A DNA stretch of 59,103 nt from an uncultured Gammaproteobacteria bacterium. GTDB taxonomy: Bacteria > Patescibacteriota > Microgenomatia > Daviesbacterales > UBA10151. Positions within the stretch are counted from its first letter, which is position 1; every line of letters starts with the position of its first letter. The DNA lies in NCBI GenBank assembly GCA_964415615.1, contig CAYQAW010000007.1, forward strand, positions 1-59,103, in the 5' to 3' direction. The notes beneath the pieces were generated by a model. The model saw only the letters and a program-made list of their open reading frames with translations, did not search any database and had not been told where the DNA came from. The translations under genes and the position numbers were made by a program. Positions 4,175 to 59,103 of the stretch are shown piece by piece.

Positions 4175-4175
4175 A

Positions 4176-4442
4176 TTACCTTCTTTCGGAATAAAGCCTT
4201 GCTTTAATAGATTTAAGCTGATTGAAGTAAGCCTGGGGCTCTACCCGCACCTTACCATGCCAATAGGACTCAATGAGTTGATCTAATTGTCTGTCTCTTT
4301 TAAAAACAAATTGAGCCTTATAGGGGTTCTGAGTTTTATCAATCGTCTCAAGAGGAAAATAAAGTGCCAGAACACTGGTTAAAGCCAAGTCCGAAGTTTT
4401 GTAATAATCATCATCTTTAGGATCTACATTAGTAATACTCAT
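4176..4442 (-). CDS. DUF5659-like small phage/element protein
   Basis: 'YKTSDLALTSVL...QFVF...YWHGKVRVEPQAYFNQLKSIKARL' pattern. Confidence 0.65.
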   Translation of the reverse strand: MSITNVDPKDDDYYKTSDLALTSVLALYFPLETIDKTQNPYKAQFVFKRDRQLDQLIESYWHGKVRVEPQAYFNQLKSIKARLYSERR

Positions 4443-4631
4443 CTTAGTTATTTAAGCCAAAATGTAAATTTTGACTTTCTAAGATGGATCATAAAAAATC
4501 CTCTTATTTTTAACGTTTGAGAGGAGACCAGAGGATATTACAGTATTAAATTAGCTTATTTAGATTGTTGTATCAATCTCATTTTATACTTCCTCTAAAA
4601 TATTGAAATCCTTATCCTCTAAGTTCCTCTG

Positions 4632-16270: not shown

Positions 16271-17017
16271 ATGCCAGGCTCCCCTGAATTATTAGACAAA
16301 TGGATCACAACAGGCTTTAATTCTCAAGCAGTTGCTGGTTATGGCACTAGTGTGGAATTTCTAAAGCAGGCATTAGTAACTGGAGAAATACCATGGGGTG
16401 TACCTCAAGATGGTCAAGAGATATTACCTTACCAGCAAAAAATATTAGCCAAAGGAGGTTATCTCTACTTTGCATATCCTTTTGTTGAAAATCTACAGCC
16501 TTATAAACCAAAGCTTGTCAAGAAACTCCGCGTAGTGCCTAATAATGATCTCACTCACAATTCAATCCACGACCAACTTAGTGACTACGCGAGACGTCAA
16601 GCAGTTGAACACCATTTTGAATCATTAACAGATATAAAAAGGGGGGACGACAGAGCAATTGTTTTTCTGACTTATCTGCTTTTCCCAGATTTAATAAGCC
16701 AGTTCAAAGATGATGAATTTCTGGAAAGTTGTTTCTATGCTTTCAAAGCTGACGCTAATTGGCAAGCTCCCCCTGATCTGGGTCTTAATAACTCTACCAT
16801 ACCGCTTCCCCGGTTAAAGGAAATTTTAGCCAGCTGTGTTGAGAAAAGAGGATTAATTATATATTACAACGAAAAAATATTACGCAACCGTGTTTTGCCT
16901 GGATTCGAGCTGGAAAGTGAAATTATGATTCATACCAAAAAACCACTAACCCTAGCTGTTATATCTGGCATCAAACCATTGGCTAAACCAGATATCAAGG
17001 CTTTACACTGCAGTTAA
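16271..17017 (+). CDS. Hypothetical protein (possible ADP-ribosyltransferase-like fold)
   Basis: 248 aa; 'GYGTS' near the N-terminus and 'ESEIMI' near the C-terminus. Confidence 0.55.
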   Translation: MPGSPELLDKWITTGFNSQAVAGYGTSVEFLKQALVTGEIPWGVPQDGQEILPYQQKILAKGGYLYFAYPFVENLQPYKPKLVKKLRVVPNNDLTHNSIHDQLSDYARRQAVEHHFESLTDIKRGDDRAIVFLTYLLFPDLISQFKDDEFLESCFYAFKADANWQAPPDLGLNNSTIPLPRLKEILASCVEKRGLIIYYNEKILRNRVLPGFELESEIMIHTKKPLTLAVISGIKPLAKPDIKALHCS

Positions 17018-19870: not shown

Positions 19871-22012
19871 ATGCCTGCAGGACGAAGAAAAAAAACCAGT
19901 TTTAGGTTCTTTCCTGCCACCTATGTCCTTTTTTTGGTTAAAATTATTCTGATTAAAATTGGCGAGATTCCATTAAAAATAGTTTACCGCATACACCGAA
20001 GACGGGCAGTAGGTCGCCCTAAAAAGCTGCGTTTTTCTAAAAAAACTAAAATTGCCTTGGCATCAGGTGTATTTTTACTTTTCATCTCTTCTTACACTGC
20101 CTTTATCCTCACAGCAGCCTATGCGCTGCCTACCCCATCCAAGATGGCTTATTCCAATAATCCACTAACTACAGAAATTTATGATAGAAATGGAAATTTG
20201 CTTTATAGATTTTATGAGGCAAAAAACCGGACTCTGGTTCAATTATCAGAAATCCCTAAGAGTTTAACTCAAGCTACTCTGGCTATTGAGGATCAGAATT
20301 TTTATCGCCATTTCGGTGTTGATTTTTCTGCCATAATACGCGCTTTTTATCAGAATGCAACTACAGGTTCCCGGCAAGGAGCCTCAACTATTACCCAACA
20401 GCTGATTAAAAACTCTCTTTTAACTCCAGAGAGAACCTATACCAGAAAGATTAGGGAGGTTATTTTAGCTTTATGGACAGAGCAGGTTTATTCAAAAGAC
20501 CAGATTTTACAGATGTATTTTAATGAGGCTCCATATGGAGGAGCAATTGTGGGTATTGGGGCTGCTTCACAAACCTATTTTGGTAAATCCCCCTCAGAGC
20601 TATCCTTAGCAGAAAGTACCTACCTGGCAGGATTGCCTGCCTCACCTACTCAATTTTCTCCATATGGAGAAAATCCCGAGTTGGCAAAGCAGCGGCAAAA
20701 AGAAATCCTGCAAAGAATGGTTGTAGATAAATATATTACTCAATACCAGGCAGATGAGGCTTACTCAAAGAAGCTTAATATTAAACCTTTAGCCAATGAT
20801 ATCCTGGCTCCACACTTTGTTTTCTATATCAAGGATCAGCTGGTAGACAAGTTAGGACCAAGGGTTGTTTCCCAGGGAGGCTTAAAAGTCTATACTACCC
20901 TGGATTTAAACCTGCAGGGGAAAATTGAACAAATAGTCAAAGATGAGGTGGATAAGCTGCAGAATTTAAATGTTCAAAATGGAGCAGCCATGGTAACCGA
21001 CGGCACAACCGGACAAATCCTGGCTATGGTAGGATCCAGAGACTATCACTATCCTAGCTTTGGTAATTATAATGTGACCCTTTCCCTTCGCCAACCAGGC
21101 TCATCCATCAAACCAATCACTTATGCCACTGCTTTCAAAAACGGTTTTAACCCAGGCAGTATGATCCTGGATGTTCCTGTTGTTTTCAAAGATGAATGGG
21201 GAAATTCTTACTCTCCTGTCAACTATGATGGCACTTTTCATGGCCCAGTTACCCTACGTCAAGCCCTGGGCAGTTCTTTAAATATTCCTGCTGTTAAATT
21301 ACTTGCTACTTTAGGAGTAAATCCTGTAATAGAAACTGCCAGGAATCTAGGAATTACTACTTTTACTGATCCCAAAAGATATGGACTAAGCCTAACTCTC
21401 GGAGGAGCTGAGGTAAAAATGATTGATATGATGGGTTCTTATGGAGCTTTTTCCCAAATGGGCAAGCTAAATACACCCACTGGTATTATAAAAGTCACAG
21501 ATTTTAGTGGCCATATTTTAGATGAGTACAAAAATTCTCCCAAACAAGTACTTTCTGCTGATACAGCGTACCTTGTAACTAACATTTTGACAGATGAAAT
21601 GGCAAGAAAAATGGCTTTTGGACCACATTCTTTACTTTATATTCCGAGTTTTGATGTAGCAGTCAAAACTGGCACCTCCGATAATAAAAGGGATAATTGG
21701 ACTTTTGGCTATACACCAAAGTACGTAGTAGGAGTTTGGGTAGGTAATCCTGACAACTCACCTATGAATCCTGCGTTAACTTCAGGGGTAACAGGGGCAG
21801 CCCCAATTTGGAATAAAATTATGCATACACTTTTAGATAACACCGCACCTTTAGCTTTTGAGAAACCATCAATCTTAGGTGCAGCTGGAACAATTCCTAA
21901 AGCTATGGTCAAAGTACAAAAAAAAGGAGACAAGCTGATTTTTTCTGACGCATTCTCCTCATATTCCACCCCTTCAGCGCAAGCAGCCACTTTAGAAATC
22001 ACCACCAATTAA
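19871..22012 (+). CDS. Class A penicillin-binding protein (PBP1A family)
   Basis: GT51 motifs 'EDQNF', 'QGASTITQQLIKN', 'RKIRE'; transpeptidase SxxK 'GSSIKP', 'SLN', 'KTG'. Confidence 0.95.
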   Translation: MPAGRRKKTSFRFFPATYVLFLVKIILIKIGEIPLKIVYRIHRRRAVGRPKKLRFSKKTKIALASGVFLLFISSYTAFILTAAYALPTPSKMAYSNNPLTTEIYDRNGNLLYRFYEAKNRTLVQLSEIPKSLTQATLAIEDQNFYRHFGVDFSAIIRAFYQNATTGSRQGASTITQQLIKNSLLTPERTYTRKIREVILALWTEQVYSKDQILQMYFNEAPYGGAIVGIGAASQTYFGKSPSELSLAESTYLAGLPASPTQFSPYGENPELAKQRQKEILQRMVVDKYITQYQADEAYSKKLNIKPLANDILAPHFVFYIKDQLVDKLGPRVVSQGGLKVYTTLDLNLQGKIEQIVKDEVDKLQNLNVQNGAAMVTDGTTGQILAMVGSRDYHYPSFGNYNVTLSLRQPGSSIKPITYATAFKNGFNPGSMILDVPVVFKDEWGNSYSPVNYDGTFHGPVTLRQALGSSLNIPAVKLLATLGVNPVIETARNLGITTFTDPKRYGLSLTLGGAEVKMIDMMGSYGAFSQMGKLNTPTGIIKVTDFSGHILDEYKNSPKQVLSADTAYLVTNILTDEMARKMAFGPHSLLYIPSFDVAVKTGTSDNKRDNWTFGYTPKYVVGVWVGNPDNSPMNPALTSGVTGAAPIWNKIMHTLLDNTAPLAFEKPSILGAAGTIPKAMVKVQKKGDKLIFSDAFSSYSTPSAQAATLEITTN

Positions 22013-32509: not shown

Positions 32510-33633
32510 GTATTACTTTCTAATACCTTCAAGGTTTCTCTAGCGCACTTCTCCCAAGAAAATCTCTTAACATTCTCGAGTCCTATTTTAATTAGCTTGA
32601 TTCTTAATTCATGATTCATGATTCTACCCATCCCACTTACTATATCATCAATATCATAGGGATTCACATAGACCGCTGCTCCGCCAGCTGGCGGACCCCC
32701 AACTTCTGGCATACTCGATAAATTAGAAGTAATCACAGGACATCCACAAGCTTGAGCTTCTAAAATTGGCAGTCCAAACCCTTCAAAAAGAGATGGAAAA
32801 ACAAAAGCAATTGCCCCAGAATATAAAGCAGGTAACTTTTCATCAGGAACATATCCCAAAAATTTAACCCTATCCTCTATCCCCAGCTTCTTTGGTAATT
32901 TATAAATTTCATCACTCATCCAACCTTTAGATCCTGCAATAATCAGTCTGAAAGCTGAAGACTGATGACTGAAAGCTTCTATCAATCTTTCTAAATTTTT
33001 CCTTGGTTGTACTGTACCTACAAAGAGGAAGTAGTTTTGATATATTAAGTTATATTTTTTAATAATTTGACTAACTTTGAACTTTGAACTTTGAACTTTG
33101 AACTTTTCTTTATCGTAGCCCTCATAAACCACACTAATCTTCTTTTCGTCTATATGTATTTTCCTTACCAAATCTTGTTTGGTAGCTTTTGACACAGCAA
33201 TAATCTTAGTGGCAGTTTTAAGCTGCCTCTTTTGCATAAATCCCAAATAAAGCCTTTGTTTAATCTGATGCATGGAAGGCAAATATTCAGAACCTAAATC
33301 ATGAACTGTTACTACAGTTTTAAGTCCTGGCTTTTTGATCACTGGCAAAGTGTGCGATGGAACAAACAACACATCCAAGTTATCCTTAAAAGTTTGCAAA
33401 GCCAAACCCCCTTGAGTCCATAATCTAAACCAGCGAATTTCTTTGATTTGGAAATTATTAGGCAATCCTACATTACTTGTAACGATCGTGGAAGTAATTG
33501 TAGCCCTTGTGTAAATTATATAAGTATTATTCTTATCAATCCTGGCTAAAGCTTTCAGTAGTTGATAAGAATAATACTCTGTCCCTGTTTTCTTATCAAC
33601 AAACGCTCTGGATCCATCAAAACCAATGACCAT
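32506..33633 (-). CDS. Glycosyltransferase family 4
   Basis: 'RKNLERL', 'EGFGLPILEA'. Confidence 0.92.
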   Translation of the reverse strand: MVIGFDGSRAFVDKKTGTEYYSYQLLKALARIDKNNTYIIYTRATITSTIVTSNVGLPNNFQIKEIRWFRLWTQGGLALQTFKDNLDVLFVPSHTLPVIKKPGLKTVVTVHDLGSEYLPSMHQIKQRLYLGFMQKRQLKTATKIIAVSKATKQDLVRKIHIDEKKISVVYEGYDKEKFKVQSSKFKVSQIIKKYNLIYQNYFLFVGTVQPRKNLERLIEAFSHQSSAFRLIIAGSKGWMSDEIYKLPKKLGIEDRVKFLGYVPDEKLPALYSGAIAFVFPSLFEGFGLPILEAQACGCPVITSNLSSMPEVGGPPAGGAAVYVNPYDIDDIVSGMGRIMNHELRIKLIKIGLENVKRFSWEKCARETLKVLESNT

Positions 33634-47369: not shown

Positions 47370-48338
<969 letters not shown>

Positions 48339-49773: not shown

Positions 49774-51222
49774 ATGAATCAAAACGAAGTAGGTTATGTT
49801 GTATCAAGCAGGGATTTTCTAGTTTACCTAAATGGCTTCCCCACCATCAGAGTTAATGACATGGTGGAATCTGATAATAATCTCCGTGGCTGGGTTAATT
49901 CTACCCTAGAAGATAAAATTGAAGTTCTGATGTTAGATGAAGGAGAAATCAAACCAAAGCAACAATTTAAAAAACTACCTAACCGTTTAGGAATTGCTGT
50001 AGGAAATTCATTGCTAGGGCGGGCAGTCAACCCTTTAGGAATACCTATTGATGGTAAGGGCCTACTTTCCCATACTAAATCTACTGATATCTCAGAACTG
50101 GACAAAGAGGCCCCTGGAATAGAATCCAGAGAATTTATTACCACCCAATTTTTAACAGGAATAACTTTAATTGATACTTTGATTCCTCTGGGACAAGGCC
50201 AAAGAGAACTGGTTTTGGGAGATGCCCATTCTGGTAAAACAGGCTTCTTGATTGATACAGTTATAAATCAAAAAAACACTGGTGTAATTTGTGTGATAGC
50301 CTCAATTGGCAAACCTGCTGTGACAGTCAGGAATTTGATTGATACCCTAAAAAACAATGGTGCTTTGGATTATACAATTGTGGTTGCCACATCTTCTTCT
50401 GAACCAGCGCCTCTAATTTTTTTAACTCCTAAAACTGCCATGACTATTGCTGAATATTTCCAAAAACAGGGCAAAGATGTGCTGTTGATATTAGATGATT
50501 TAGGCTCGCATGCCAAAATCTACCGGGAAATTTCCCTGCTCGGCAACAAAGCCCCAGGCAGAGAATCTTATCCTGGAGATATTTTTTACCAGCATGCTCA
50601 TTTACTGGAAAGGGCTGGGAATTTTTTGCCACAATTTGGCGGAGGTTCTATCACAGCTCTACCTGTAATCGAGCTTAATTTAAATGATTTTACTACTCTT
50701 ATCCCTACAAATGTGATGTCCATGACTGATGGACATTTAATGTTTAAAGCTTCTATGCGTTCCCAGGGACAAATACCAGCCATAGATATTTCTTTATCAG
50801 TATCCAGAGTAGGCAGGCAAACTCAAAACCATTTAACTAATTTACTTTCTACTAAAATCAGGCAAGTTCTATCTGAAGCAGCAGATTTGGAAACAGTTTC
50901 CAGATTTTCTTCAGAACTACCAGCAGAAACTCAGCTGATATTAAAAAGAAGAGATTTAATCATGGAAATTTTAAAACAAGAATCTTTAACTGCTGTAGTC
51001 AAACAAATTCAAGTTATACTTCTGGCACTCCCCTTTACCAAATTCTTGCAGGATAAAAACAAAGCTTTTGTTGAAAAATATAAACCAATAATTATTGAAA
51101 ACTTTCTAAAAAATCCTGGACTTGTACCAATTACCAAATCCATCAACCAGTTAAAAAGTGACGAGGAATTAATAAAAATGCTGGAGGGAGCAGGACCAGT
51201 ACTGACAAAAATCTGCCAATAG
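49774..51222 (+). CDS. atpA: F1 ATPase alpha subunit (divergent)
   Basis: 'GQGQRELVLGD..SGKT', 'PGRESYPGDIFY', 'SMTDG', 'SVSRVG'. Confidence 0.93.
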   Translation: MNQNEVGYVVSSRDFLVYLNGFPTIRVNDMVESDNNLRGWVNSTLEDKIEVLMLDEGEIKPKQQFKKLPNRLGIAVGNSLLGRAVNPLGIPIDGKGLLSHTKSTDISELDKEAPGIESREFITTQFLTGITLIDTLIPLGQGQRELVLGDAHSGKTGFLIDTVINQKNTGVICVIASIGKPAVTVRNLIDTLKNNGALDYTIVVATSSSEPAPLIFLTPKTAMTIAEYFQKQGKDVLLILDDLGSHAKIYREISLLGNKAPGRESYPGDIFYQHAHLLERAGNFLPQFGGGSITALPVIELNLNDFTTLIPTNVMSMTDGHLMFKASMRSQGQIPAIDISLSVSRVGRQTQNHLTNLLSTKIRQVLSEAADLETVSRFSSELPAETQLILKRRDLIMEILKQESLTAVVKQIQVILLALPFTKFLQDKNKAFVEKYKPIIIENFLKNPGLVPITKSINQLKSDEELIKMLEGAGPVLTKICQ

Positions 51223-51310
51223 CTATCAGCTATCAGTCTTCAGCCATCAGACTAAAAATTTCAGAGTCTGAAAGCTGAAAGCTGAGAGCGAAGCGATACT
51301 GAAGACTATT
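51220..51310 (+). repeat. Empty heptamer-arm hairpin, atpA-atpG
   Basis: TAG stop inside the arm; GAAGACTATT directly before ATG. Confidence 0.92.
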
Positions 51311-52159
51311 ATGACTATAAAACAAATTGATGCAGCGCTGGAAGAAGGACAATCTTTAAAACAGATTGCTCAAGCTTATTCTGAAATTGCCAATCTGAAA
51401 ATTAAAAGAATCAGAACAGAGGTGGAAAGAAACAGGGTCTTTTTTAAAGAGATTGAAGGAGTTTATGCTTTGATTAAAAATCTGGCTGTCAGGAGAAAAA
51501 CAAATATTACCAAACCTAAAAAGACAATCAGCATAGTTTTAACTTCAAATCACAGGTTTTATGGCAACATTAACTCTGATCTATTAAAGTTTTTTGTAAG
51601 TTCTACTCAAAACTTAGATACAGATAGAATCATGCTGGGCAAGGCTGCAATAGATTATTTCAGGGCTGATCCCATATTTAAAGATTACCAGGAAATAACA
51701 TTAAAAGAGGACCAGCCAGATAGTGTTGAGCTGTTGGCTTTAACAAATATGGTCAAGGATTATAACCAAGTACTGGTTTTTTATTCCAGTATGAAAAGTT
51801 TACTAGTCCAGCAACCTGTGGTAACAGATATCACAGCCTCAAGTACACTCGTAGCAAGCGATCCCAATCTCCATCCTCAAAACAAAGAAGGATTTAAATT
51901 TATCTTTGAGCCGGATTTAGGTAAAATATTGCATTTTTTTGACAGTCAAATCATCACTCTACTAATTGAGGGGACATTTTTAGAATCTGAACTCTCCAGA
52001 ACAGCTTCCCGTTTTGTTTCCATGGATGGTGCAGAAACGCAGGCAAATAAATTTCTTAAAGATTATCAATTGATTAAAGCATATGCTAAAAGAAACATGG
52101 ACAACAATACAATTTTAGAAAATTTTGCTACTATGATAGCTGTAAGAAAGGAGCATTAG
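51311..52159 (+). CDS. atpG: F1 ATPase gamma subunit (divergent)
   Basis: 'IVLTSNHRFYGNIN', 'SELSRTASRFVSMDGA'. Confidence 0.88.
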   Translation: MTIKQIDAALEEGQSLKQIAQAYSEIANLKIKRIRTEVERNRVFFKEIEGVYALIKNLAVRRKTNITKPKKTISIVLTSNHRFYGNINSDLLKFFVSSTQNLDTDRIMLGKAAIDYFRADPIFKDYQEITLKEDQPDSVELLALTNMVKDYNQVLVFYSSMKSLLVQQPVVTDITASSTLVASDPNLHPQNKEGFKFIFEPDLGKILHFFDSQIITLLIEGTFLESELSRTASRFVSMDGAETQANKFLKDYQLIKAYAKRNMDNNTILENFATMIAVRKEH

Positions 52160-52279
52160 ACAATAGAAGGTAGAAGATAGTATTTTGATAATAGAAGTTA
52201 GATAGTAGATAATTCCATCTTCTATCTTCTATATTCAAAGATCCATTTTCTATTTTCCATCATCTATCGTCAGAACATT
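52160..52279 (+). repeat. Heptamer-arm hairpin of a different family (TAGAAGA/TCTTCTA), atpG-atpD
   Basis: Purine-rich 7-mer arm followed by a complementary pyrimidine-rich arm. Confidence 0.8.
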
Positions 52280-53779
52280 ATGTCAAATCCAACTGTTCAA
52301 AATAGTCCAAATATCGCCTCCACACCTTCCCTAAACCATCAAAATCGGGCCCGCGGAACCATCACCTCCGTCAATGGCCAAATTGCTACTGTTGAGATTG
52401 ACGGCGATATTTTTCCTGAACTTTTTGAGATACTGGCTGCACCCTCTGACCCCTCAGTAATTTTGGAAGTTTTTTCCCAGTCTGAACTTTCAATTTTTGT
52501 CCAGATTTTAAGTAATCCGGATAAACTATTCAGGGGCATGCAAGTTGTAGGCACTGGATCTGATTTAAAAGTCCCTGTGGGGTCTCCTGTTTTAGGACGG
52601 GTTATAGATTTATTTGGAATTCCCAAAGATAATGGCAAGGCAATAACTACAGATAAAAAAAGCTCTATTTATTCCAAAGCGCCATCTTTAAATATCGTTA
52701 AATCAACCTATCAGGTTTTAGAAACAGGCATCAAGGCTATAGATTTCCTGACCCCCATACAAAAAGGTGGAAAAGTGGGCTTTATAGGAGGAGCAGGTGT
52801 AGGAAAAACTATTTTACTTACAGAACTCATGCACAACATTACCTTAAGACCAGCCAGTTCACACCTCCCAGGTGAGCATAAGCTGCAGACTGAATCACAC
52901 CTGGGAGGTGAAAGTAAACCAGTCTATTCTGTATTTGCAGGTGTAGGAGAAAGAATTAGAGAAGGACAAGAGTTGGTTCAACGTTTACAAGAATCAGGAG
53001 TTTTACCTAAAACAATCCTGGTGCTGGGACAAATGAATGAAAATGCAGCTATCCGTTTCAGGATAGCTTTAGCAGCAGCAGCCCAGGCAGAATATTTTAG
53101 GGATGAAATAAAATCAGATGTGCTATTTTTTATTGATAATATGTTCAGGTATGTTCAGGCAGGAGCTGAGGTAGCAACGCTTCTGGGTACTATCCCCTCT
53201 GAACAAGCCTATCAGGCTACTCTTCAAACAGAGGTAGCAACCCTAGAAGACAGACTAATCCCTACAGGAAATGGGGCGATTACTTCTTTCCAGAATGTGT
53301 ACGTGCCAGCAGATGAAATTTCCGATGCTGGAGTAGTAGCTGTTATGTCGCTTCTGGATAATGCCATAGTACTATCACGTTCTGTTGCCCAAAAAGGTAT
53401 TTACCCTCCTATAGACTTATTCCAGTCCTCTTCTTCTACTGCTTCCAGGTCTTTCTTAGGTGAAGTGCATTTTAAAGCTTTAACAGAGTTTCAAAAGATT
53501 CTGGAAAACTATAACAAACTATCACACATTGTAGCAATTGTCGGAGAAGAAGAATTATCCCCGGAAAACAGGATACTTTATAACAGGACCAAAAAAATAA
53601 TAAATTATCTAACCCAGCCTTTTTTTATGACCGAAAAACAAACTGGCAAAAAAGGAGTTTATGTTTCCAGAGAGACTAGTGTAAAAGATATCGCAATAAT
53701 ACTTTCTGGCTCATTAGATAACACCCCAGCAGAAAAATTTATGTACATTGGATCTCTGGCTGACGCCAAGATAATATAG
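52280..53779 (+). CDS. atpD: F1 ATPase beta subunit
   Basis: 'GGAGVGKT', 'GVGERIREG', 'GQMNE', 'IDNMFRY', 'YVPADE'. Confidence 0.96.
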   Translation: MSNPTVQNSPNIASTPSLNHQNRARGTITSVNGQIATVEIDGDIFPELFEILAAPSDPSVILEVFSQSELSIFVQILSNPDKLFRGMQVVGTGSDLKVPVGSPVLGRVIDLFGIPKDNGKAITTDKKSSIYSKAPSLNIVKSTYQVLETGIKAIDFLTPIQKGGKVGFIGGAGVGKTILLTELMHNITLRPASSHLPGEHKLQTESHLGGESKPVYSVFAGVGERIREGQELVQRLQESGVLPKTILVLGQMNENAAIRFRIALAAAAQAEYFRDEIKSDVLFFIDNMFRYVQAGAEVATLLGTIPSEQAYQATLQTEVATLEDRLIPTGNGAITSFQNVYVPADEISDAGVVAVMSLLDNAIVLSRSVAQKGIYPPIDLFQSSSSTASRSFLGEVHFKALTEFQKILENYNKLSHIVAIVGEEELSPENRILYNRTKKIINYLTQPFFMTEKQTGKKGVYVSRETSVKDIAIILSGSLDNTPAEKFMYIGSLADAKII

Positions 53780-53855
53780 CTTTCAGTCATCAGTCTTCAG
53801 CTTTCAGACTTTTCTGATTTGTCTGATGACTGACAGCTGATAGCTGACGACTATT
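53777..53855 (+). repeat. Empty heptamer-arm hairpin, atpD-atpC
   Basis: TAG...GACGACTATT|ATG. Confidence 0.92.
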
Positions 53856-54122
53856 ATGCAAACCTTACATGTCAGAATCATCTCCCCTCAACAACTAATC
53901 TTAGATACTACTGCTTCCTCAGTCAGCTCCAAAAACCCCCAGGGGAATTTTGATATCTTACCCCAACATGCTAATTTTATAACCATTGTAGAAAATGAAC
54001 CTATTGTGGTAAGAACGCTGGACCAAAAATCTGTAACTTTTAAATTTCCTCTAGCTATAATTTTAACAAGAGAAAATAAGGTGAGTATTTATACATATAT
54101 CCAGCCTCAATTAGATAAGTAG
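53856..54122 (+). CDS. atpC: F1 epsilon subunit, N-terminal beta domain only
   Basis: 'LHVRIISP', 'GNFDILPQHANFIT'; 88 aa, no C-terminal helices. Confidence 0.85.
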   Translation: MQTLHVRIISPQQLILDTTASSVSSKNPQGNFDILPQHANFITIVENEPIVVRTLDQKSVTFKFPLAIILTRENKVSIYTYIQPQLDK

Positions 54123-54241
54123 TAATTTTCAAGTACCAATTATCAATTTACAATGAATTTTCAATGATTCAATTACCAATGTTTGAAAATTATTCCATTG
54201 ATCATTGATTGAAAATTGCAAAATTGAAAATTGTAAATTAA
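54120..54241. repeat. Heptamer-arm hairpin (AATTTTC/GAAAATT family) after atpC
   Basis: (CAATTNN)n arm versus (AAAATTG)n arm. Confidence 0.75.
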
Positions 54242-54344
54242 TTCTGATCCTTTTTGATTACCCCCTTTTTTCTTCTTAGTAATGAATTTTAATTACTAAG
54301 TATTAGTATTAACCATTATATATATTAATCATTAATAATAAGTC

Positions 54345-54414
54345 TTGACAAATGCGTCAAAATCTATGCATACTGGATATAGGATCTATGCATGATAAAA
54401 AAAGATGCATAGAT
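54345..54414 (+). promoter_or_regulatory. Promoter (TTGACA at 54345) with three ATCTATGCAT operator-like boxes
   Basis: Direct copies at 54362-54371 and 54384-54393, inverted copy at 54405-54414. Confidence 0.65.
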
Positions 54415-54482
54415 TTAGGGCAGAGCAGCCTAGATTTTTGCAGACGGAAGCCTGAATCCCTCTTTTTTTTACTTTTGTTTTT

Positions 54483-57400
54483 ATGGAAAAACCGTCTGCG
54501 AAAAAAGTTAATAGTTCAGAGTTAATAGTTAATAGTGAAAAAACTACAAACTACAAACTACAAACTAATAACTTCGTTAAGATTGGCCAAGCTTCTGAAA
54601 TCCTCGGAGTTTCTATTGACACCTTAAGAAGATGGGAGAGGCTTGGAAAAATCACAGTTCAAAGAACCCCCGGCGGAACAAGACTTTACCCTCTGTCTGT
54701 AAAAATTGGTGATGCCTCTAAAATTTTAGGAGTTTCTATTGACACCTTAAGAAGATGGGAAGCAGCTGGCAAAATAGCAACCATCAGAACCTCTGGCGGA
54801 ACAAGACTTTATTCCTTAGTATCCTTAAGCAGAAAAAATAAAGCTGAGCCTAAAAACACCAATAGCACAGAAGAATTACTCAAAAAAACTAACTCCGATT
54901 CAAAAAATATATCACCTAGCTCTTATATTATTCCTACATCTACTCCTATCACTCTGGAGAAAACAAAGGATATAAACAAATTCTTAATTGGAGCTGGATT
55001 TACTTTGGTAGTAATTTTAATAATTTCTGGCTTCATGGTTGCTTCTTTCCAAAAGAAAAATGGGCTATCTACCAACTACCAACCCCGATTCAATCGGGGC
55101 CAACTACCAACTACCAACTCTAATGTCCTGGCTGTAACAACTGTTTCTAAATATCTAGAAATAAACAGCGATACTCAAATCAATGGGTCTTTATCTGTGC
55201 GTGATGGCATCAATGGTTTAACCTTGGAAGCTACTCCTTCAACAAATAGCATTGCTTTAACATCAGGAGATACTACTTTGACTGTAACAAAGACTGCCAA
55301 ACTAGATCAAGATGTATCAACTACCTCTACTCCTACCTTTGCCAGTCTTAATTTATCCTCTACTAAAAATCAACTAGTTTTCCAAAGTGGTGGACCCACA
55401 GGCACTTTAACCTGGACTCCAACTGGTGCAAGAATTGTAACCTTACCTGATGCCACCACAACCTTAGTTGGTAAAGATACTACTGATACTTTAACCAACA
55501 AATCCATTTCTGGTTCTACCAATACTTTAACTAATATCCCCAATTCTGCTTTAACCAATCCATCTGTTACTGTAACTGCTGGGACCAACTTAACTGGTGG
55601 AGGAACTGTTGCACTAGGCGGTTCAGTTACCCTTGCTCTAAAAGACTCGCCTGCTTTTACTGGTCAGGTTCTGCTAACTGATGGAACAGCTGCTGCCCCA
55701 GCTTTAGCCTTCAGCAGTGATATTGATTCAGGTCTATATCTAATTGGTACAAACAAGATCGCTCTGATCACAGGAGGCACAGCTACCTCAGGTATTACTA
55801 TTGATGCATCTGGTAATTTAGGAGTAGCTAATAATGCTCCAGCATATAAATTAGACGTGACAGGCACAGCCAATATTACTTCCAATACTACTATTGGTGG
55901 AACTTTGGGAGTAACGGGCGCCTCGACTCTCTCTTCGACCCTAGGGGTATCTTCAGGATTATCTGTTGGTTCTGCTTACTACTCGCTTTCGCCACCACCA
56001 AATGGTGCCATTATAGAAGGTAATGTCGGAATCGGAACCAGCGCGCCTGGTTCTTTTGCGTTAAATGTAAACGGTGATGCTAATATCACCGGGAGCCTGA
56101 TAACCAGTCAATCTTTAACATTTTCCTCTCTTTCTCAAGGATCAGTTGTCTTTGCAGGCTCATCAGGAACTCTGTCTCAAAACAACCCAAACTTCTACTG
56201 GGATGATACCAATACCAGGCTGGGAATAGGCACCTCTGCTCCTTCTGATACCCTCACTGTCAGTGGTACTAGTTCTTTTGCTTCTACCTTAACTGCTTCC
56301 AATGGTTTAACTCTAACCACAGGAGCTTTAAATTTAACCTCTACCTCAGGAGCTGTTAACTTAGGGTTAACCTCCTCTACTCAAGCATTTAGATTAGGAG
56401 CTGGATTTAACTTTGATTCTACTAACTCCAGAGTTGGTATAGGTTCTACTGCTGCTCCAACTTCTGCTTTAACAGTAATTGGTAATATTGGTATTGGTAC
56501 CTCTGCTGCAGGAGCAGCCTTACAGGTAAATGGCGGAGGACTATTTGGCTGGGGGACAGCTTCTTCTTCCCTCTCTTCTGGAGCTATTTTAGGAGTTAAT
56601 GGAAATGTGGGAGTAGGAACTACTACACCTTTGGCTAACCTGCATGTAGTAGGACAGTGTGTGACTGGAGATACCAGGCTGAGGAGAAGGAAGAAAAAGA
56701 AGAATGGTGAGTGGTCTGATGAATATGAAGATATAGAGATTAAAGATATCCAAACAGGAGACCAAATCCTGTCCTTAAATGAGAGTACTGGTGAATTTGA
56801 ACCTCATACTGTCAAAGCCCTCAAAAATATGGGTAAACAGGGAGTATTCATGTTAGTTACCCAGTCAGGAAAAAGAATTGAAACTACAAATGAACACCCA
56901 TATCTGACTATTACACACCTGGAAGGAGTCAAGGCCCACCTTCCAGGTGCTAATCAACAAAAATCCTCTGTCTTTGAAGTTGATCAATCACCTAAGGTGG
57001 AAATCTTAACCCAAAAATCTGTGGTAGCAATAGCCCAAAAAAATCAAGCATTCACTTTAACAATCTCCAAAGAACTTAAAAGGAAATTGTTTGATAACTA
57101 CTATCAGGACAGACCTAAATTATTTGGACCGGAGATTTTTGCATTCTCCATCATAGATCTTTTACAAAAATCAAACACTTCTATCACCAGATTGGAAATT
57201 GATACTGATTACACAGGATATGGGATAAAGATTACGGCATTAATAAAAAGATTCTATCCGGAAATTGATGTCCGCTTTAAAGAAGTTGGTAAACACTCAC
57301 CTGCTCACTTGGCAGCATACCTTACCCAGACAGGAAGAAAAGTTCAGAAAACCAATAAAAAAGAGACCCTGGCCAATTTGAAACTCAAAGGCTTCTTGGC

Positions 57401-59103
57401 TTCAGAACTGTTGCGCCAGGCGTTTACAAGGGTTCGCAGTCCACATGGTCTCTTAAACATTTCCAAGTATACCACTAAATGGGAAAAAATCAAGTATCTA
57501 AAACCTGGAATGATTATAGCTACAGCTGATGGATGGGAGAAAATACAAACTAAATACTCTACTGGTAAAAAACAAACCTTTGATATAGAAGTTAGTGAAA
57601 CTCATAACTTTGTAGGGAATAATATAGTTGCCCATAATACTTTTATCACTGGTAATGTTGGGATAGCTAACTCTGCTCCATCTTTTACTCTGGATGTAGT
57701 AGGTACTGGTAGATTTTCTTCTGCTTTAACGGCCTCAAATAGTTTAACTCTATCAACTGGAGCTCTAAATTTAACTTCTACCTCAGGCCAAGCTAACTTA
57801 GCTTTAAGCAGTAACACCAATGCCTTTACCGTTAATGGATTGTTTGGGATTGATACACAAAATAATAGAGTCGGCATTGGGACAACTGCTCCAGTTCAAA
57901 CTTTCCAGGTAAATTCAGGCACTTCTTCTATGGTGGTTACTTCAGGAGGAAATGTTGGAATAGGATTTACTTCTCCAACAGCTAACTTACATGTTGTTGG
58001 AACCACCAGATTTGATGGCACCACCACCTCTTATGGCAATATCCTGCCTGGCAATGATGTTACTTATGATCTTGGCTCTTCTGCTGTCAGATGGAATAAT
58101 TTATATGCCTACAACATCACTGCCACCAATATAGCAGGTGTGATTACTGGAGGTTCTACTTCTTCTTCTGATTGGTTAATCAACTCCACCAATACCTCAG
58201 ACAGCGCTAATTCATCTTTAAGCTTTAAAAGAGGCTCTGCTACTAATGCTGTACTGCAGTGGTATGGAGACAATAATACTTTTGATTTTAACTCAGGTAT
58301 AAGAATTGGGGTAAACGGTGGTGCTGCTTCTACCATTGAAAATACTACTGGCTTAGTATTATCTGGTTTTGGAAATGATATCACCACAGGCACTAATGAA
58401 AACTTATCCTTAATTCCCAATGGTACAGGCAATGTTGGAATTGGAACATCCAATCCAACCCAATTCTTCCAAATTAACTCCAATGGTTCCTCAGCTTTTG
58501 TTGTAACCTCCTCTGGAAATGTTGGAATAGGAACAACCACTGCTGATTACAACTTATCTGTTGTTGGTACAGCTAACTTTACAGGCAATGTAGGAATTGG
58601 AGGCACAGCTACTATCAGTTCCCTACTACAGGCAAATGGTGGTTTAACTGTGACTGGATCTTCCATACTTCAAGCTCTGTCTGCTACAGATATATCCTCA
58701 TCTACATTAACCACTACTGGAAATGTGGGAGTAGGAGGATCTTTAACTGTTACAGGTACTTCTACCTTCACAGGACTTTCTACTTTCAATGGTGGAGCTA
58801 CTATTGCCTCAGGACAAAACCTAACATTATCTGGATTTACTTCTGGAGCAGGACTGTTTGCTGGAACATCAGGAGTAGTATCTCAAAACCCATCAAACTA
58901 TTACTGGGATAATACTAACAACAGATTAGGAATAGGTACTTCTGCCCCATCTGCTGCTTTCCAGGTTAATACTAATACCTCAAACCCAGTAGTAATTACC
59001 TCTACTGGTAATGTTGGTATTGGAACCACCTCCCCAGCCATGCTTTTGCAAGTCATGGGTAATGCTGGTTTTGGAGATTCAGTTACAGCTGCCAGGGCTA
59101 GCA
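54483..59103 (+). CDS. Giant surface/fibre-like protein (3'-truncated by the window edge): 2x MerR-type HTH, TM, Thr/Ser/Gly-rich 'GNVGIGT..P' repeats, internal intein
   Basis: Most of the frame hand-translated from ATG 54483 without meeting a stop; its absence from the stop-delimited ORF track fits an ORF running off the window; >1540 codons. Confidence 0.9.
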   Translation, partial: MEKPSAKKVNSSELIVNSEKTTNYKLQTNNFVKIGQASEILGVSIDTLRRWERLGKITVQRTPGGTRLYPLSVKIGDASKILGVSIDTLRRWEAAGKIATIRTSGGTRLYSLVSLSRKNKAEPKNTNSTEELLKKTNSDSKNISPSSYIIPTSTPITLEKTKDINKFLIGAGFTLVVILIISGFMVASFQKKNGLSTNYQPRFNRGQLPTTNSNVLAVTTVSKYLEINSDTQINGSLSVRDGINGLTLEATPSTNSIALTSGDTTLTVTKTAKLDQDVSTTSTPTFASLNLSSTKNQLVFQSGGPTGTLTWTPTGARIVTLPDATTTLVGKDTTDTLTNKSISGSTNTLTNIPNSALTNPSVTVTAGTNLTGGGTVALGGSVTLALKDSPAFTGQVLLTDGTAAAPALAFSSDIDSGLYLIGTNKIALITGGTATSGITIDASGNLGVANNAPAYKLDVTGTANITSNTTIGGTLGVTGASTLSSTLGVSSGLSVGSAYYSLSPPPNGAIIEGNVGIGTSAPGSFALNVNGDANITGSLITSQSLTFSSLSQGSVVFAGSSGTLSQNNPNFYWDDTNTRLGIGTSAPSDTLTVSGTSSFASTLTASNGLTLTTGALNLTSTSGAVNLGLTSSTQAFRLGAGFNFDSTNSRVGIGSTAAPTSALTVIGNIGIGTSAAGAALQVNGGGLFGWGTASSSLSSGAILGVNGNVGVGTTTPLANLHVVGQCVTGDTRLRRRKKKKNGEWSDEYEDIEIKDIQTGDQILSLNESTGEFEPHTVKALKNMGKQGVFMLVTQSGKRIETTNEHPYLTITHLEGVKAHLPGANQQKSSVFEVDQSPKVEILTQKSVVAIAQKNQAFTLTISKELKRKLFDNYYQDRPKLFGPEIFAFSIIDLLQKSNTSITRLEIDTDYTGYGIKITALIKRFYPEIDVRFKEVGKHSPAHLAAYLTQTGRKVQKTNKKETLANLKLKGFLASELLRQAFTRVRSPHGLLNISKYTTKWEKIKYLKPGMIIATADGWEKIQTKYSTGKKQTFDIEVSETHNFVGNNIVAHNTFITGNVGIANSAPSFTLDVVGTGRFSSALTASNSLTLSTGALNLTSTSGQANLALSSNTNAFTVNGLFGIDTQNNRVGIGTTAPVQTFQVNSGTSSMVVTSGGNVGIGFTSPTANLHVVGTTRFDGTTTSYGNILPGNDVTYDLGSSAVRWNNLYAYNITATNIAGVITGGSTSSSDWLINSTNTSDSANSSLSFKRGSATNAVLQWYGDNNTFDFNSGIRIGVNGGAASTIENTTGLVLSGFGNDITTGTNENLSLIPNGTGNVGIGTSNPTQFFQINSNGSSAFVVTSSGNVGIGTTTADYNLSVVGTANFTGNVGIGGTATISSLLQANGGLTVTGSSILQALSATDISSSTLTTTGNVGVGGSLTVTGTSTFTGLSTFNGGATIASGQNLTLSGFTSGAGLFAGTSGVVSQNPSNYYWDNTNNRLGIGTSAPSAAFQVNTNTSNPVVITSTGNVGIGTTSPAMLLQVMGNAGFGDSVTAARAS
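56658..57638 (+). mobile_element. Intein (Hint), 327 aa, with a non-LAGLIDADG insert
   Basis: Block A 'CVTGDT', block B 'TTNEHPY', blocks F/G 'TFDIEVSETHNFVGNNIVAHN', +1 residue Thr. Confidence 0.92.

Follow-up and report, generated by a model that had tools for sequence, protein, structure and literature searches.

A captured module in an intein of a CPR fibre gene: a predicted RNase H-like nuclease and an opposite-strand small RNA gene

The intein and its host fibre gene

We analysed a window of 59,103 nt, positions 1 to 59,103 on the forward strand of contig CAYQAW010000007.1 (GCA_964415615.1) from a CPR bacterium. Its last gene is a fibre gene (Table 1), translated into two MerR-type helix-turn-helix domains (Pfam MerR, 1.1e-27), one hydrophobic transmembrane-like segment and a long series of GNVGIGT...LxVxG fibre repeats. 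From this sequence, the host protein looks like a membrane-anchored fibre, oriented N-in and C-out. Its full-length version, P0011 (1555 aa), contains the intein at residues 726-1052 and is 100% identical to the window over the insert. A syntenic host orthologue is found in a Daviesbacteria locus (L088), after the ATP synthase operon.

Table 1. Features of the intein-bearing fibre gene
Feature	Position	Strand	Remarks
Host fibre gene	54489..59103	+	Truncated by window end; translation
Class-1 intein, complete, 327 aa	56658..57638	+	Translation, Pfam, TIGR and PDB matches
Hint N-terminal part	56658..56915	+	Block A (CVTGDT) to block B (TTNEHPYLTI)
Linker with palindrome	56916..56966	+	Low confidence, pLDDT <50 (AlphaFold)
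RNase H-like nuclease core (predicted)	56967..57353	+	Family HMM, AlphaFold, Foldseek
Small RNA gene body (predicted)	57355..57459	-	Covariance-model matches, identity, suppressed synonymous change, inverted repeat
Promoter-like site for small RNA	57466..57493	-	TTGATT (57493-57488), 16 nt, TG-TATACT (57471-57466)
Hint C-terminal part	57477..57638	+	N4-like strand KWEKIKYLKPGMIIAT, block F TFDIEVSETHNF, block G NNIVAHN
+1 Thr codon	57639-57641	+	Directly after intein

The initial annotation had described a complete intein within a fibre repeat, and the translation bears this out: the element starts with CVTGDT (Cys1), carries TTNEH (TxxH) as block B and ends with THNFVGNNIVAHN (His-Asn), followed by Thr. 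The predicted spliced junction, LHVVGQ/TFITGNVGI, falls within a GNVGIGT-type repeat. Pfam Intein_splicing matches over its cut-off (5.6e-14), as do TIGR01445 and TIGR01443, and the PDB matches are DnaB mini-inteins. The window intein, DnaB-type mini-inteins (PDB 4o1r, 1mi8) and canonical inteins have in common the Hint fold with blocks A, B, F and G, as well as Cys1, TxxH, His-Asn and a nucleophile at +1. A whole-intein AlphaFold model (pLDDT 82) forms the Hint fold from residues 1-88 and 271-327, and the intein looks splicing-competent. BIL and pre-toxin Hint domains likewise sit in repetitive surface proteins; however, the window element has the full intein signature, including the +1 Thr, and passes the Intein_splicing cut-off, while PT-HINT (16.9 bits against 27.7) and Hint fall short of theirs.

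The insert (56916-57476, about 187 aa) was first thought to occupy the usual endonuclease site between blocks B and F. It actually lies one strand earlier, in the loop that joins block B to the N4 strand. The point at which canonical inteins take up an endonuclease, between IIAT and DGWEKI, is closed. A construct lacking residues 87-271 gives an end-to-end alignment to the Npu DnaB mini-intein 4o1r (E = 4.5e-13), stronger than that of the full intein (4.2e-09). As the annotation had stated, the insert holds neither LAGLIDADG nor HNH; it matches no Pfam or NCBIfam family and no known homing-endonuclease class. The palindrome noted at its start is real (arms 56916-56926 and 56939-56949, 11/11 perfect pairs, RNA fold z = -3.7) and is one of four perfect 11-nt hairpins with arms at most 30 nt apart in the 59-kb window. 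The element does not conserve it: its second arm encodes residues absent from the closest homologues, and the linker is specific to the window's lineage and probably a small inverted duplication.

The nuclease-type core

A family HMM matches the insert core at 5.4e-33 and matches nothing else in the window. An exhaustive search collected 191 clusters at E < 1e-3, both intein-borne and free-standing, and a profile search collected 271 proteins; in all there are 48 clusters of intein-borne copies and more than 200 free-standing homologues, the latter of the kind that the initial annotation had suggested seeking. Because both intein-borne and free-standing homologues were found, a chance origin of the insert is excluded. 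The family, absent from Pfam and NCBIfam, consists mostly of free-standing proteins of about 150 aa (core about 145 aa) from CPR bacteria, DPANN archaea and Chloroflexi.

The AlphaFold model of the core (pLDDT 90.3, pTM 0.87) has the topology beta-beta-beta-alpha-alpha-beta-alpha-beta-alpha. Its top Foldseek matches are RNase HII/H2, RNase HI and integrase cores, all of them RNase H-like, with modest E-values (best 6e-3 in the PDB and 1.5e-3 in BFVD; TM 0.45-0.56). This confident model points to an RNase H-like fold, the part of the earlier RNase-H/DUF3800 proposal that stood. The two acidic strands on which that proposal drew are also real, coinciding with the near-invariant family positions D6 and D79/E81-Y82 (domain numbering). 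When placed by secondary structure, the near-invariant D, E, D-x-E and H fall in strand 1, at the end of strand 4 and in the last helix. The window core keeps the candidate catalytic and motif residues: D-Q-S in strand 1, E12, K38/R39, D79-x-D81-Y where strand 4 ends and G-K-x-S-P-A-H where the last helix begins. The nuclease motifs are conserved in all 12 aligned intein-borne copies, although these are only 40-50% identical to one another; R46, near-invariant in free-standing proteins, is lost from intein-borne ones.

The opposite-strand small RNA gene

The stretch that follows the core is GC-richer, as had been observed (0.457 over the RNA gene body, compared to 0.354 in the core and 0.373 in the whole intein), but was not judged richer than the exteins (0.41). 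The initial annotation had proposed a co-captured 3' non-coding region read in frame. Co-capture and non-coding origin hold: the same 36-nt core is read in three frames across genes, and follows the stop codon in others. The stretch is, however, predicted to be a convergent minus-strand gene for a small RNA and not a 3' UTR. At free-standing loci the RNA lies after the stop codon, while inteins and long-tailed genes are translated through it in any frame; in the window its reverse complement supplies about 35 intein linker residues of low predicted confidence.

The RNA family is 55-95 nt long, with strong covariation, helices P1, P2 and P3 and an invariant CGA/UAA internal loop. Covariation against homologues, a check that had been suggested, gave a score of 0.805 compared to 0.303 in shuffles (0/500 reach 0.805), and 10 of 11 pairs are compensatory. 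In helix P2, the plus strand would have 24 A.C pairs (G.U on the minus strand) and zero G.T. Covariance-model matches are confined to the 3' ends of family genes and are antisense every time. The RNA gene has its own sigma-70-like promoter and a terminal U-tract: the minus-strand pattern TTGACA-N15-19-TAnnnT, followed by a U-run, occurs at 61 of 74 family loci; the controls gave 8 and about 10. No match to the RNA came from Rfam, which includes the Weinberg DUF3800-associated motifs.

In the window, the positionally homologous promoter-like site overlaps the N4-like strand codons (KWEKIKY), and the RNA is predicted to start near 57459. The closing helix P1 pairs 57454-57447 with 57368-57361, an extra hairpin arm lies at about 57371-57403, and the core has the order P2, CGA-loop, P3 and UAA-loop; the U-tract is the complement of 57354-57362. 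Two covariance models match here, R1 at 57394-57455 (23.9 bits, E = 0.003) and R2 at 57396-57452 on the minus strand (20.0 bits, E = 0.006), and inverted repeat I7 was detected in the region. Nucleotide identity with a Daviesbacteria intein copy is 88% over 137 nt. Synonymous change is suppressed, with an identical-codon fraction at identical residues of 0.74 in the tail compared to 0.46 in the core. The RNA model still scores in 8 of the 12 intein-borne copies examined. The window RNA is degraded, with three invariant positions altered and P3 weakened; since conserved positions have been lost, RNA control is probably weakened in this copy, while the nuclease motifs are intact.

By sequence comparison, the insert is thus a captured two-gene module, an RNase H-like nuclease ORF and an opposite-strand small RNA gene on one piece of DNA, which also circulates alone in CPR bacteria, DPANN archaea and Chloroflexi.

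Distribution, known relatives and possible function

The module is patchy and crosses domains, with 143 confirmed matches among the 185,579 species genomes of the collection, some of which hold several. At the loci examined, we found no conserved gene partner of the family; neighbourhoods vary and include tandem copies and fragments. Free-standing members lie among housekeeping genes and lack signal sequences. Bona fide DUF3800 genes adjoin module copies in loci L015 and L009. Differently loaded inteins, also sought at the annotation's suggestion, occupy sites of the same kind as well as the orthologous one, and include cargo-less and degenerate examples. The same loop of multi-copy inteins can carry another nuclease cargo, an NYN domain (6e-27). 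The Daviesbacteria fibre gene at L088 has at least eight inteins, others of which hold junk in this loop, such as a reverse-complement tRNA-Glu-like piece. Complementarity of the RNA to the reconstituted insertion site was at chance level in eight of nine inteins tested (longest matches 6-8 nt, shuffle mean about 7). Locus L014 has one unexplained 14-nt same-sense match to the reconstituted site.

We compared the module to several known systems. Canonical inteins similarly carry a nuclease-fold domain mid-intein, with free-standing relatives and with degenerate and empty versions in related genes. Their LAGLIDADG or HNH cargo, however, sits at the usual block B-to-F site and their hosts are conserved replication and repair enzymes, whereas the window host is a repetitive surface-fibre protein and the cargo is RNase H-like with an antisense RNA gene alongside. 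We know of no described homing-endonuclease class with an RNase H-like fold, and a literature search found none. Type I toxin-antitoxin pairs such as txpA/RatA and bsrG/SR4 encode an antisense RNA that converges on the toxin gene and covers the 3' end of its message, and RalR, paired with RalA, is a nuclease toxin. The module resembles them as a protein gene whose 3' end is overlapped or abutted by a convergent small RNA, in a two-part selfish unit that is solitary, patchy and multi-copy. Known type I systems have small membrane peptides as toxins, whereas this is a folded 145-aa nuclease-type domain, and simple pairing would not need a three-helix RNA with loop bases invariant across phyla. 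In known type III systems the antitoxin is a repeat array that precedes the toxin gene, which the module RNA is not.

DUF3800 was also compared. It has the same RNase H2-like fold, an N-terminal D-x-S/E-G strand motif, a tightly linked, small, structured, UAA-rich RNA ending in a terminator, freedom of orientation, and mobile and defence contexts. Among the top Foldseek matches of the window core is PDB 3puf, a best modelling template for DUF3800 (PMC7736814). Membership of DUF3800 by sequence was rejected: none of 121 family members matches PF12686 and hhalign gives a probability of 1.7%, leaving a likeness of fold and RNA partner. The window family also has D-Q-S in place of D-E, lacks the QxxD motif and is shorter (about 145 aa compared to about 200-250 aa).

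The function we favour, while holding it at slightly less than even confidence, is that of a selfish nuclease module under RNA control, by which the intein is stabilised or mobilised. Having an RNA partner speaks for a toxin-antitoxin-like nuclease, or one controlled by RNA, more than for a plain homing enzyme. The lack of a conserved gene partner, the variable neighbourhoods, tandem copies, fragments and patchy cross-domain spread support selfishness, and the multi-copy inteins with NYN cargo also count in favour. There is precedent in RNase H2-like DUF3800 proteins paired with terminator-bearing structured RNAs, among them DUF3800-I to -XI, drum and skipping-rope (PMC5737381), and in DUF3800 as the partner and effector of type VII retrons (PMC7736814). 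Against it stand the first carboxylate motif, D-Q-S and not the D-E of RNase HII and DUF3800, the lost R46, the modest Foldseek E-values and sigma-70 promoters unsuited to archaeal members. The weak window RNA (20-24 bits) and its loss from some intein copies may mean that the RNA is dispensable inside inteins. The module also fits neither the known type I nor the known type III pattern and, if the fibre is N-in and C-out, the intein might fold extracellularly, away from the genome and the RNA.

A plain homing endonuclease that cuts the intein-less LHVxGQ-TYxxGNVGIG allele, with the RNA gene an idle passenger of capture, is a rather unlikely but substantial alternative. A nuclease fold inside an intein, with relatives that are free-standing, is what every homing-endonuclease family shows; the protein set has 29 occupied LHVxGQ/C sites, the L088 fibre gene is multiply occupied, the empty and degenerate inteins suit a homing cycle and the window RNA is decaying. 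Moreover, window and L088 are 87-93% identical over the 30 nt upstream of Cys1, while their N-extein proteins are 27% identical, a pattern suggestive of a conserved target or a co-conversion tract. Yet uninterrupted targets were absent from 264 proteins and 92 loci, with only one in a JGI metagenome scan, and unequal recombination alone could spread inteins among GNVGIGT repeats. The domain lacks a DNA-binding part fit for a long target, its sister cargo NYN is typically an RNase, and the intein may lie outside the cell. The conserved synonymous sites across intein copies, together with the promoter and structure retained in most, argue for selection on the RNA. An open frame 187 codons long in a genome that is AT-rich, and catalytic-type motifs retained across divergent copies, count against an inert passenger, neutral as it is spliced out and slowly decaying in a tolerant loop; splicing does hide the insert from the host protein and the L088 junk and degraded window RNA fit this, but we consider it quite improbable.

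Only a little more probable is a ribonucleoprotein nuclease with the RNA as obligate cofactor or guide, its mobility or defence RNA-directed as with TnpB/IscB omega-RNAs or IS110 bridge RNAs. Those proteins also combine an RNase H-like (RuvC-type) fold with a structured RNA at the ORF edge, the RNA gene adjoins the 3' end as in TnpB, protein and RNA genes are strictly one-to-one across bacteria and archaea, and the invariant loop nucleotides suggest specific protein contact. However, the window protein is at least three times smaller, its RNA is encoded opposite the ORF and has a promoter and terminator of its own, transposon ends were not seen, and in place of a variable single-stranded guide-like segment the variable parts are paired, with insertion-site complementarity no better than chance in eight of nine inteins. 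Least probable is an exported effector, in which a probably extracellular fibre would undergo splicing outside the cell and set free a nuclease toxin aimed at host or competitor cells in pre-toxin Hint style, the RNA shielding the producer. CPR bacteria live attached to host cells, and the MerR-to-fibre architecture and weak PT-HINT similarity are compatible with this. The full ligation chemistry (His-Asn and Thr+1) in place of a C-terminal toxin layout, the sub-threshold PT-HINT score and the free-standing relatives, without signal sequences and set among housekeeping genes, count against it.

Under the RNA-controlled selfish module that we favour, splicing would free an intein carrying an active nuclease domain, and the antisense RNA, transcribed within the intein-coding DNA, would control that nuclease, either through pairing with the 3' part of its message or through protein binding. 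Together the two would be selfish, addiction-like or self-limiting. The module would then prevent loss of the intein, and may aid its spread among the repeated LHVxGQ/TYxxGNVGIG fibre sites.

The intein and the position of its cargo

The host reading frame that runs through position 56658 on the plus strand is open from about 54489 to the end of the window. Its product begins with two MerR-type helix-turn-helix domains (Pfam, 1.1e-27) and continues through one hydrophobic segment into GNVGIGT...LxVxG repeats. The MerR/excisionase-type pair at the head of the protein occupies 54489-55100, and the fibre repeats extend for more than 1,300 aa after the hydrophobic segment. It is odd for a DNA-binding head to be fused to what is probably a surface fibre, and this arrangement is kept in a Daviesbacteria orthologue that is annotated as a MerR regulator.

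Positions 56658-57638 encode a 327-aa intein, and the splicing blocks, together with Pfam and TIGR scores above their cut-offs, bear out the complete Hint domain proposed in the initial annotation. Block A with its N-terminal nucleophile (CVTGDT, at 56658) scores 24.8 bits with TIGR01445 against a cut-off of 24.5; block B (TxxH) reads TTNEH-PYL, its T and H being invariant in an alignment of 11 relatives; and the end, THNFVGNNIVAHN followed by T, provides blocks F and G with a penultimate His, a terminal Asn and Thr at +1 (TIGR01443 on the C-terminal part, 22.7 bits versus a 15.6 cut-off). Pfam Intein_splicing (PF14890) scores 52.7 bits versus 35.8 (5.6e-14), and the closest PDB sequences are DnaB mini-inteins. 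By sequence criteria, the element is a class-1 intein that is predicted to splice. A pre-toxin Hint or BIL domain was rejected, as PT-HINT scores 16.9 bits, below its 27.7 cut-off, and a His-Asn and Thr+1 ligation junction is present. The window contains exactly one intein, one family protein and one RNA copy.

When residues 87-271 are removed, the remaining 141 aa align without a break to the Npu DnaB mini-intein 4o1r, with a better E-value than the intact intein (4.5e-13 versus 4.2e-09), and HPYLTIT-TKWEKIKYLKPGMIIAT of the window falls over HKFLTIN-GWKRLDELTPKEHLAL of 4o1r. The canonical endonuclease site, after the N4-like strand, is closed in the window (IIAT-ADGWEKI); therefore, the cargo lies one strand earlier than usual, in the loop between block B and N4. 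An AlphaFold model of the whole intein agrees with this position, placing Hint strands at residues 1-88 and 271-327 and a confident domain at 105-225; the linkers at 90-99 and 231-263 are modelled with low confidence.

The palindrome that had been flagged before the insert is real (11/11), but it is specific to this lineage. Because the 59-kb window holds four perfect hairpins of this kind, and because the second arm encodes residues absent from the nearest homologues, we take it for a lineage-specific inverted duplication within a disordered linker, which has pLDDT below 50 in the whole-intein model. More short perfect or near-perfect hairpins, some within ORFs, lie at 47403-47441, 823-848, 20653-20674 and 33561-33600 of the window. 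A match to RAGATH-12 (Rfam) on the minus strand within the fibre repeats, at 56373-56451, reaches 19.6 bits where the gathering score is 75 (E = 0.7) and is almost certainly due to chance.

The inteins of this family have stereotyped junctions, with ...LHV(V/A/E)GQ before CVTGDT... at the N-terminal end, and ...(D/G/N)I(V/I)AHN before TY(I/L)xGNVGIGT at the C-terminal end. At the syntenic Daviesbacteria locus L088, an ATP synthase operon is followed by a MerR-fibre gene with at least eight inteins, whose N-terminal 30 or so residues are near-identical where they follow NLHVVGQ. Several of them have a frame break about 30 codons past Cys1, in a repetitive GAAGATGGA stretch, which could be repeat-assembly errors, pseudogenes or programmed shifts. 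Differently loaded inteins thus do occur at the same kind of site: the B/N4 loops of L088 carry the RNase H-like module three times and elsewhere an NYN domain, an insert of about 150 aa or short linkers. The NYN domain (PF01936, 6e-27; intein at L088:13719-14738) is followed by a basic tail, RKRPRRASQNR, and to our knowledge an NYN/PIN-like domain has no prior description as intein cargo. The insert of about 150 aa (intein at L088:11574-12575; ...VYFSREGWNHL...YFWALQGIVEGVWVKVIIRK...) has no Pfam match and is a third cargo type. Short-linker inteins encode SGPEGNRTPATRI..., the reverse complement of a tRNA-Glu-like sequence, and the minus strand has a real tRNA-Glu(ctc) immediately past the last, degenerate L088 intein. 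These tRNA-Glu-like pieces occur in cargo-less inteins of L088 and not in the tail of the module, and in this form the 3′ flank of the gene itself has apparently been taken up into the loop as well. With an NYN domain and unrelated inserts in the same loop of the sister locus, the B/N4 loop acts as a general cargo slot.

The N-exteins of the window and its orthologue are only 27% identical, yet 26-28 of the 30 nt before Cys1 are the same. The truly orthologous site, L088:19726 (77/90 upstream nt identical), is occupied by an intein without cargo and with a degenerate C-terminus. An uninterrupted LHVxGQ-TY was absent from 264 proteins and 92 loci, the protein set alone having 29 occupied sites, and a JGI metagenome scan contained one (L093:5478-5513). 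Recombination among the repeats and endonuclease-driven homing are therefore equally likely routes of spread.

Features of the window and of related loci
Feature	Location	Strand	Remark
Promoter-like TTGATT-16-TG-TATACT	57493-57466	minus	overlaps codons of the KWEKIKY strand
Predicted start of small RNA	near 57459	minus
Closing helix of small RNA	57454-57447 / 57368-57361	minus	inverted repeat I7
Extra hairpin arm of window RNA		minus	covaries with copies of L089, L090 and L091
RNA core	listed between extra hairpin arm and U-tract	minus
U-tract	complement of 57354-57362	minus
Intein-less junction			coding DNA for GNVGVGTTSPLANLHVVGQ-TYISGNVGIGTT
Syntenic locus	L088:6117-20500		Daviesbacteria GCA_016187035.1; syntenic with window 49774-59103
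SGPEGNRTPATRI-type loci	L088 ~16400-16600; L088:20365-20434; L089:10001-11237 (P0009)
Secondary structure of nuclease domain	E2-8, E18-24, E27-33, H35-46, H50-69		AlphaFold model, domain numbering
Secondary structure, continued	E75-79, H86-96, E101-105, H112-121		AlphaFold model, domain numbering

A family of RNase H-like proteins

The middle of the intein (187 aa, 56916-57476) has no match in Pfam or NCBIfam. The insert and 8-121 of its homologues were without a LAGLIDADG, HNH, GIY-YIG or Vsr-type match in Pfam, NCBIfam, PHROG and PDB sequences, in keeping with the earlier view that no known homing-endonuclease class is present; Pfam, NCBIfam, PHROGs and PADLOC gave nothing consistent for the domain and its relatives. 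A word-indexed protein search yielded no match for the insert alone and seven CPR proteins with the same insert when the whole intein was the query. HMMER, run exhaustively over 1.84 billion representatives, recovered 191 clusters (E < 1e-3). About 45 are within giant repeat proteins with intein blocks on both sides, and about 100 are free-standing proteins of 140-160 aa whose N-terminus falls right at the domain's first strand, so that stand-alone homologues of the insert do exist. The 271 family proteins from a profile search have no Pfam domain and are called hypothetical, apart from P0239, whose label 'arginine deiminase' is evidently a mislabel.

The predicted structure (AlphaFold, 121 sequences; pLDDT 90.3, pTM 0.87) has the order beta-beta-beta-alpha-alpha-beta-alpha-beta-alpha, in which we found the RNase H-like topology of an antiparallel three-strand start, a helix, strand 4, a helix, strand 5 and a helix. 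The top Foldseek matches are RNase HII/H2, RNase HI and retroviral integrase cores in the PDB, and RNase H, terminase nuclease and RuvC in BFVD; the top 30 against both are mostly RNase H, integrase, terminase or RuvC folds, at modest E-values (best 6e-3 in the PDB and 1.5e-3 in BFVD) and TM-scores of 0.45-0.56. The model thus places the insert core in the RNase H-like fold class, as the initial annotation had suggested. A family-profile match to the 'SIDEAY' of Dbh/Dpo4 (PDB, E = 0.04), a weak match and the only one in that search, was judged to be chance because the predicted fold is RNase H-like and not a polymerase palm.

Invariant or nearly invariant positions are D6, Q7, S8, E12, T18, K38, R39, F58, D79, E81, Y82, G84, G108, S111, A113 and H114. 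The window's core retains them with the conservative changes E81D, T18S and G9P. D6 is on strand 1, D79 and E81 close strand 4, and S111 and H114 open the last helix; in the model, the conserved D, D-x-E and S-x-A-H would therefore be placed as in RNase H-type active sites, and the core probably acts as a nuclease. Its last conserved position is a His, in contrast to the Asp or Glu of RNase H-type sites.

The likeness to DUF3800 that had also been put forward does not amount to membership. None of the 121 family members matches PF12686 (DUF3800) at E ≤ 1, whereas true DUF3800 neighbours score 27-45 bits, and hhalign gives a probability of 1.7% between the family and those neighbours. DUF3800 proteins have an N-terminal DE and a C-terminal QxxD (PMC7736814); the family here has D-Q-S-G and G-K-x-S-x-A-H instead. 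Bona fide DUF3800 genes, with the PF12686 scores just given, lie directly downstream of a module copy or fragments at L015:1245-4570 and L009:3959-5260, and the fragments in this set retain the small RNA. This adjacency suggests that the two RNase H2-like families are linked, physically or in function.

An antisense RNA gene at the 3′ end of the nuclease

As had been noted from the sequence, the 3′ stretch that comes after the domain has a higher GC content (0.457) than the rest of the intein (0.354 in the nuclease core). About half of the residues that are identical between the window and the Daviesbacteria intein L089 use different codons, except in 57361-57455, where the DNA is about 90% identical in a block that begins exactly at the 8-bp stem. 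Six pairwise comparisons among four inteins give an identical-codon fraction of 0.74 for this block and 0.46 for the nuclease core. A short-word BLAST across all fetched loci found a shared 36 nt (ACTGTTACACCCAGAGTTTACAGGGATTCGCAG...) that is read as LHPEFTGIRSPH in the inteins of L089 and L090 and as TVTPRVYRDSQPN in a free-standing gene of L009, with more copies outside any family ORF. Because these 36 nt are translated differently between genes, the apparent tail peptide motifs are one nucleotide sequence in three frames. In short free-standing genes, the element starts just past the stop codon. The proposal of a captured non-coding region that is read through in frame thus holds. That the tail is a tRNA was rejected, as ARAGORN found none in the 3′ ends of 60 loci.

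The element is an antisense RNA gene with a conserved structure that follows the nuclease ORF. On the minus strand 3′ of the ORF, TTGACA (at most one mismatch)-N15-19-TAnnnT is present in 61 of 74 loci; the control counts are 8 for the plus strand of these segments and about 10 for shuffled sequence. A folded RNA of 55-90 nt comes after the promoter, and in 52 loci a U-run comes next, which is the plus-strand A-run adjoining the stop codon; the RNA ends at or inside the 3′ end of the nuclease ORF. Helix P2 (GAACTG/CAGTCC on the plus strand) has 88 Watson-Crick, 24 A.C and 0 G.T cells. These mismatches are G.U wobbles only on the minus strand, and therefore the RNA is on the minus strand; helices P1 and P3 do not discriminate (25 G.U versus 20 A.C), unlike P2 (24 versus 0).

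In 20 diverse minus-strand copies, P2 and P3 are 91% paired, with compensatory changes in 10 of 11 pairs. The covariation score of 0.805 is reached in 0 of 500 shuffles (0.303) and falls to 0.19 or less when the partners are slid. A previous model of P1 and P3, built on the plus strand, agrees with this result. The internal loop has an invariant C-G-A on one side and an invariant U-A-A on the other, which we take to recall the UAA/GAN internal-loop motif. Folded as a plus-strand RNA, 57380-57476 has z = 0.04; the signal is visible only by comparison between copies and on the minus strand.

In a search space of about 0.67 Mb, one covariance model (R1) has 21 matches at E ≤ 1, of which 18 reach E < 0.01, and another (R2) has 46 at E < 0.1. 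All are antisense at the 3′ end of a family gene or fragment, save two weaker secondary matches slightly further downstream (L055:3708-3794 and L028:4521-4586). Rfam models searched permissively (E ≤ 1), including DUF3800-I to -XI, drum and skipping-rope, have no relevant match in the window region and 19 loci. The window's copy scores 23.9 bits (E = 0.003) and 20.0 bits (E = 0.006) with the two models, compared to 40-54 bits for the L089 copy; the lower score is due to TTACAC changed to TTGCGC, GATTCG changed to GGTTCG and lost P3 pairs.

Distribution, mechanism and significance

Among 185,579 species genomes, 143 matches were confirmed, several in some genomes; they belong to Patescibacteria, DPANN archaea, Chloroflexota and a few other groups, and no homologue turned up in the collections of phages and plasmids or in IMG/VR. 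Neighbour clustering over 70 loci found no conserved protein partner of the free-standing genes, the best shared neighbour being a glycosyltransferase in 8 of them. Their contexts include EF-G/DnaJ, SecA and glycosyltransferase genes, and they also occur in tandem (L020) or as fragments that retain the RNA (L015). Tandem or nearby paralogues, each with its own antisense RNA, are present at L020:2992-3525 and 3995-4542, and also in L037 and L076. In a neighbour-joining tree of 259 leaves, all 48 intein-borne cores are in one sub-tree together with 35 free-standing ones, a pattern that fits one or a few capture events.

We favor an RNA-controlled selfish nuclease module. The RNA is under selection in many intein copies and is strictly linked to the nuclease in free-standing loci, which argues that the two work together; such joint working would in turn favor RNA control. 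We infer that the small RNA is expressed and acts on the nuclease, either by binding it directly or by toxin-antitoxin-like antisense pairing with the message's 3′ end. Within an intein, the module would penalize loss of the element, and the nuclease might nick or cut DNA and so promote the element's spread. Less favored alternatives are a plain homing endonuclease, in which case the RNA would be vestigial, and an inert passenger. The intein-borne copies retain catalytic-type motifs, and the RNA model still matches 8 of the 12 examined.

Alternatively, the pair could form a ribonucleoprotein or guide system, but in eight of nine inteins the longest stretch that the RNA region shares with the reconstituted site is 6-8 nt, a length that shuffles also reach. 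With site complementarity at chance level in these eight, a TnpB/IscB-type guide segment was rejected. The ninth, L014:2061-3152, has a 14-nt same-sense match, GAAGTCACCGGCAC, where the shuffle maximum is 13, and it is the sole such case. The layout of helix-turn-helix, hydrophobic segment and fibre suggests that the intein-bearing part may be exported, which would accord with an exported toxin, a further alternative, and is a caveat for all intracellular models, that of an RNA-controlled nuclease included.

Among known systems, DUF3800-RNA pairs are the closest analogue in mode of working. DUF3800 proteins, which are RNase H2-like, have an unexplained association with many unrelated, terminator-bearing, UAA-rich structured RNAs (PMC5737381), are also associated with retron RNAs (PMC7736814) and are linked to mobile elements and defence systems (PMC13594972). 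The module shares a structured, terminator-bearing small RNA, which by analogy is a likeness of working and not proof of membership. Type I toxin-antitoxin systems have the same geometry of a convergent or overlapping antisense RNA, with promoter, RNA and U-tract on the opposite strand; the likeness is of geometry only, and the module protein is not a membrane peptide. Our literature search, which also covered CPR inteins, turned up no earlier account of an intein with an RNase H-like cargo, with cargo in the B/N4 loop or with an RNA gene inside it.

On the prevailing view, inteins persist by means of a few homing-endonuclease folds at one structural position. Here, at least 48 clusters have a different cargo fold in a different intein loop, and the cargo is one partner of a protein-RNA pair that Pfam, NCBIfam and Rfam lack and that occurs in bacteria and archaea with reduced genomes. 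Dual coding is here taken to an extreme, since an RNA gene with its own promoter and terminator has its other strand translated as the linker of an intein. We regard the feature as real and see a substantial chance that a new protein-RNA system lies behind it. More tentatively, an RNase H2-like protein of about 145 aa and a convergent CGA/UAA RNA might possibly constitute an undescribed two-component system of CPR, DPANN and Chloroflexi, whose RNA would bind the nuclease directly and either gate or equip it; the window would then show that system captured whole inside an intein.

At 145 aa and about 60 nt, the pair is a small and tractable system for asking why DUF3800-type proteins accompany structured RNAs, a question open since 2017, and it would, if the proposal is true, be a minimal model for those enigmatic associations. 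This would also be the first intein whose coding sequence holds an independent, functional RNA gene, and the first to persist or move by a protein-RNA pair and not by a classical homing endonuclease. Should the pair act by addiction or as an RNA-gated nuclease, it would suggest a new way for selfish protein-splicing elements to resist loss.
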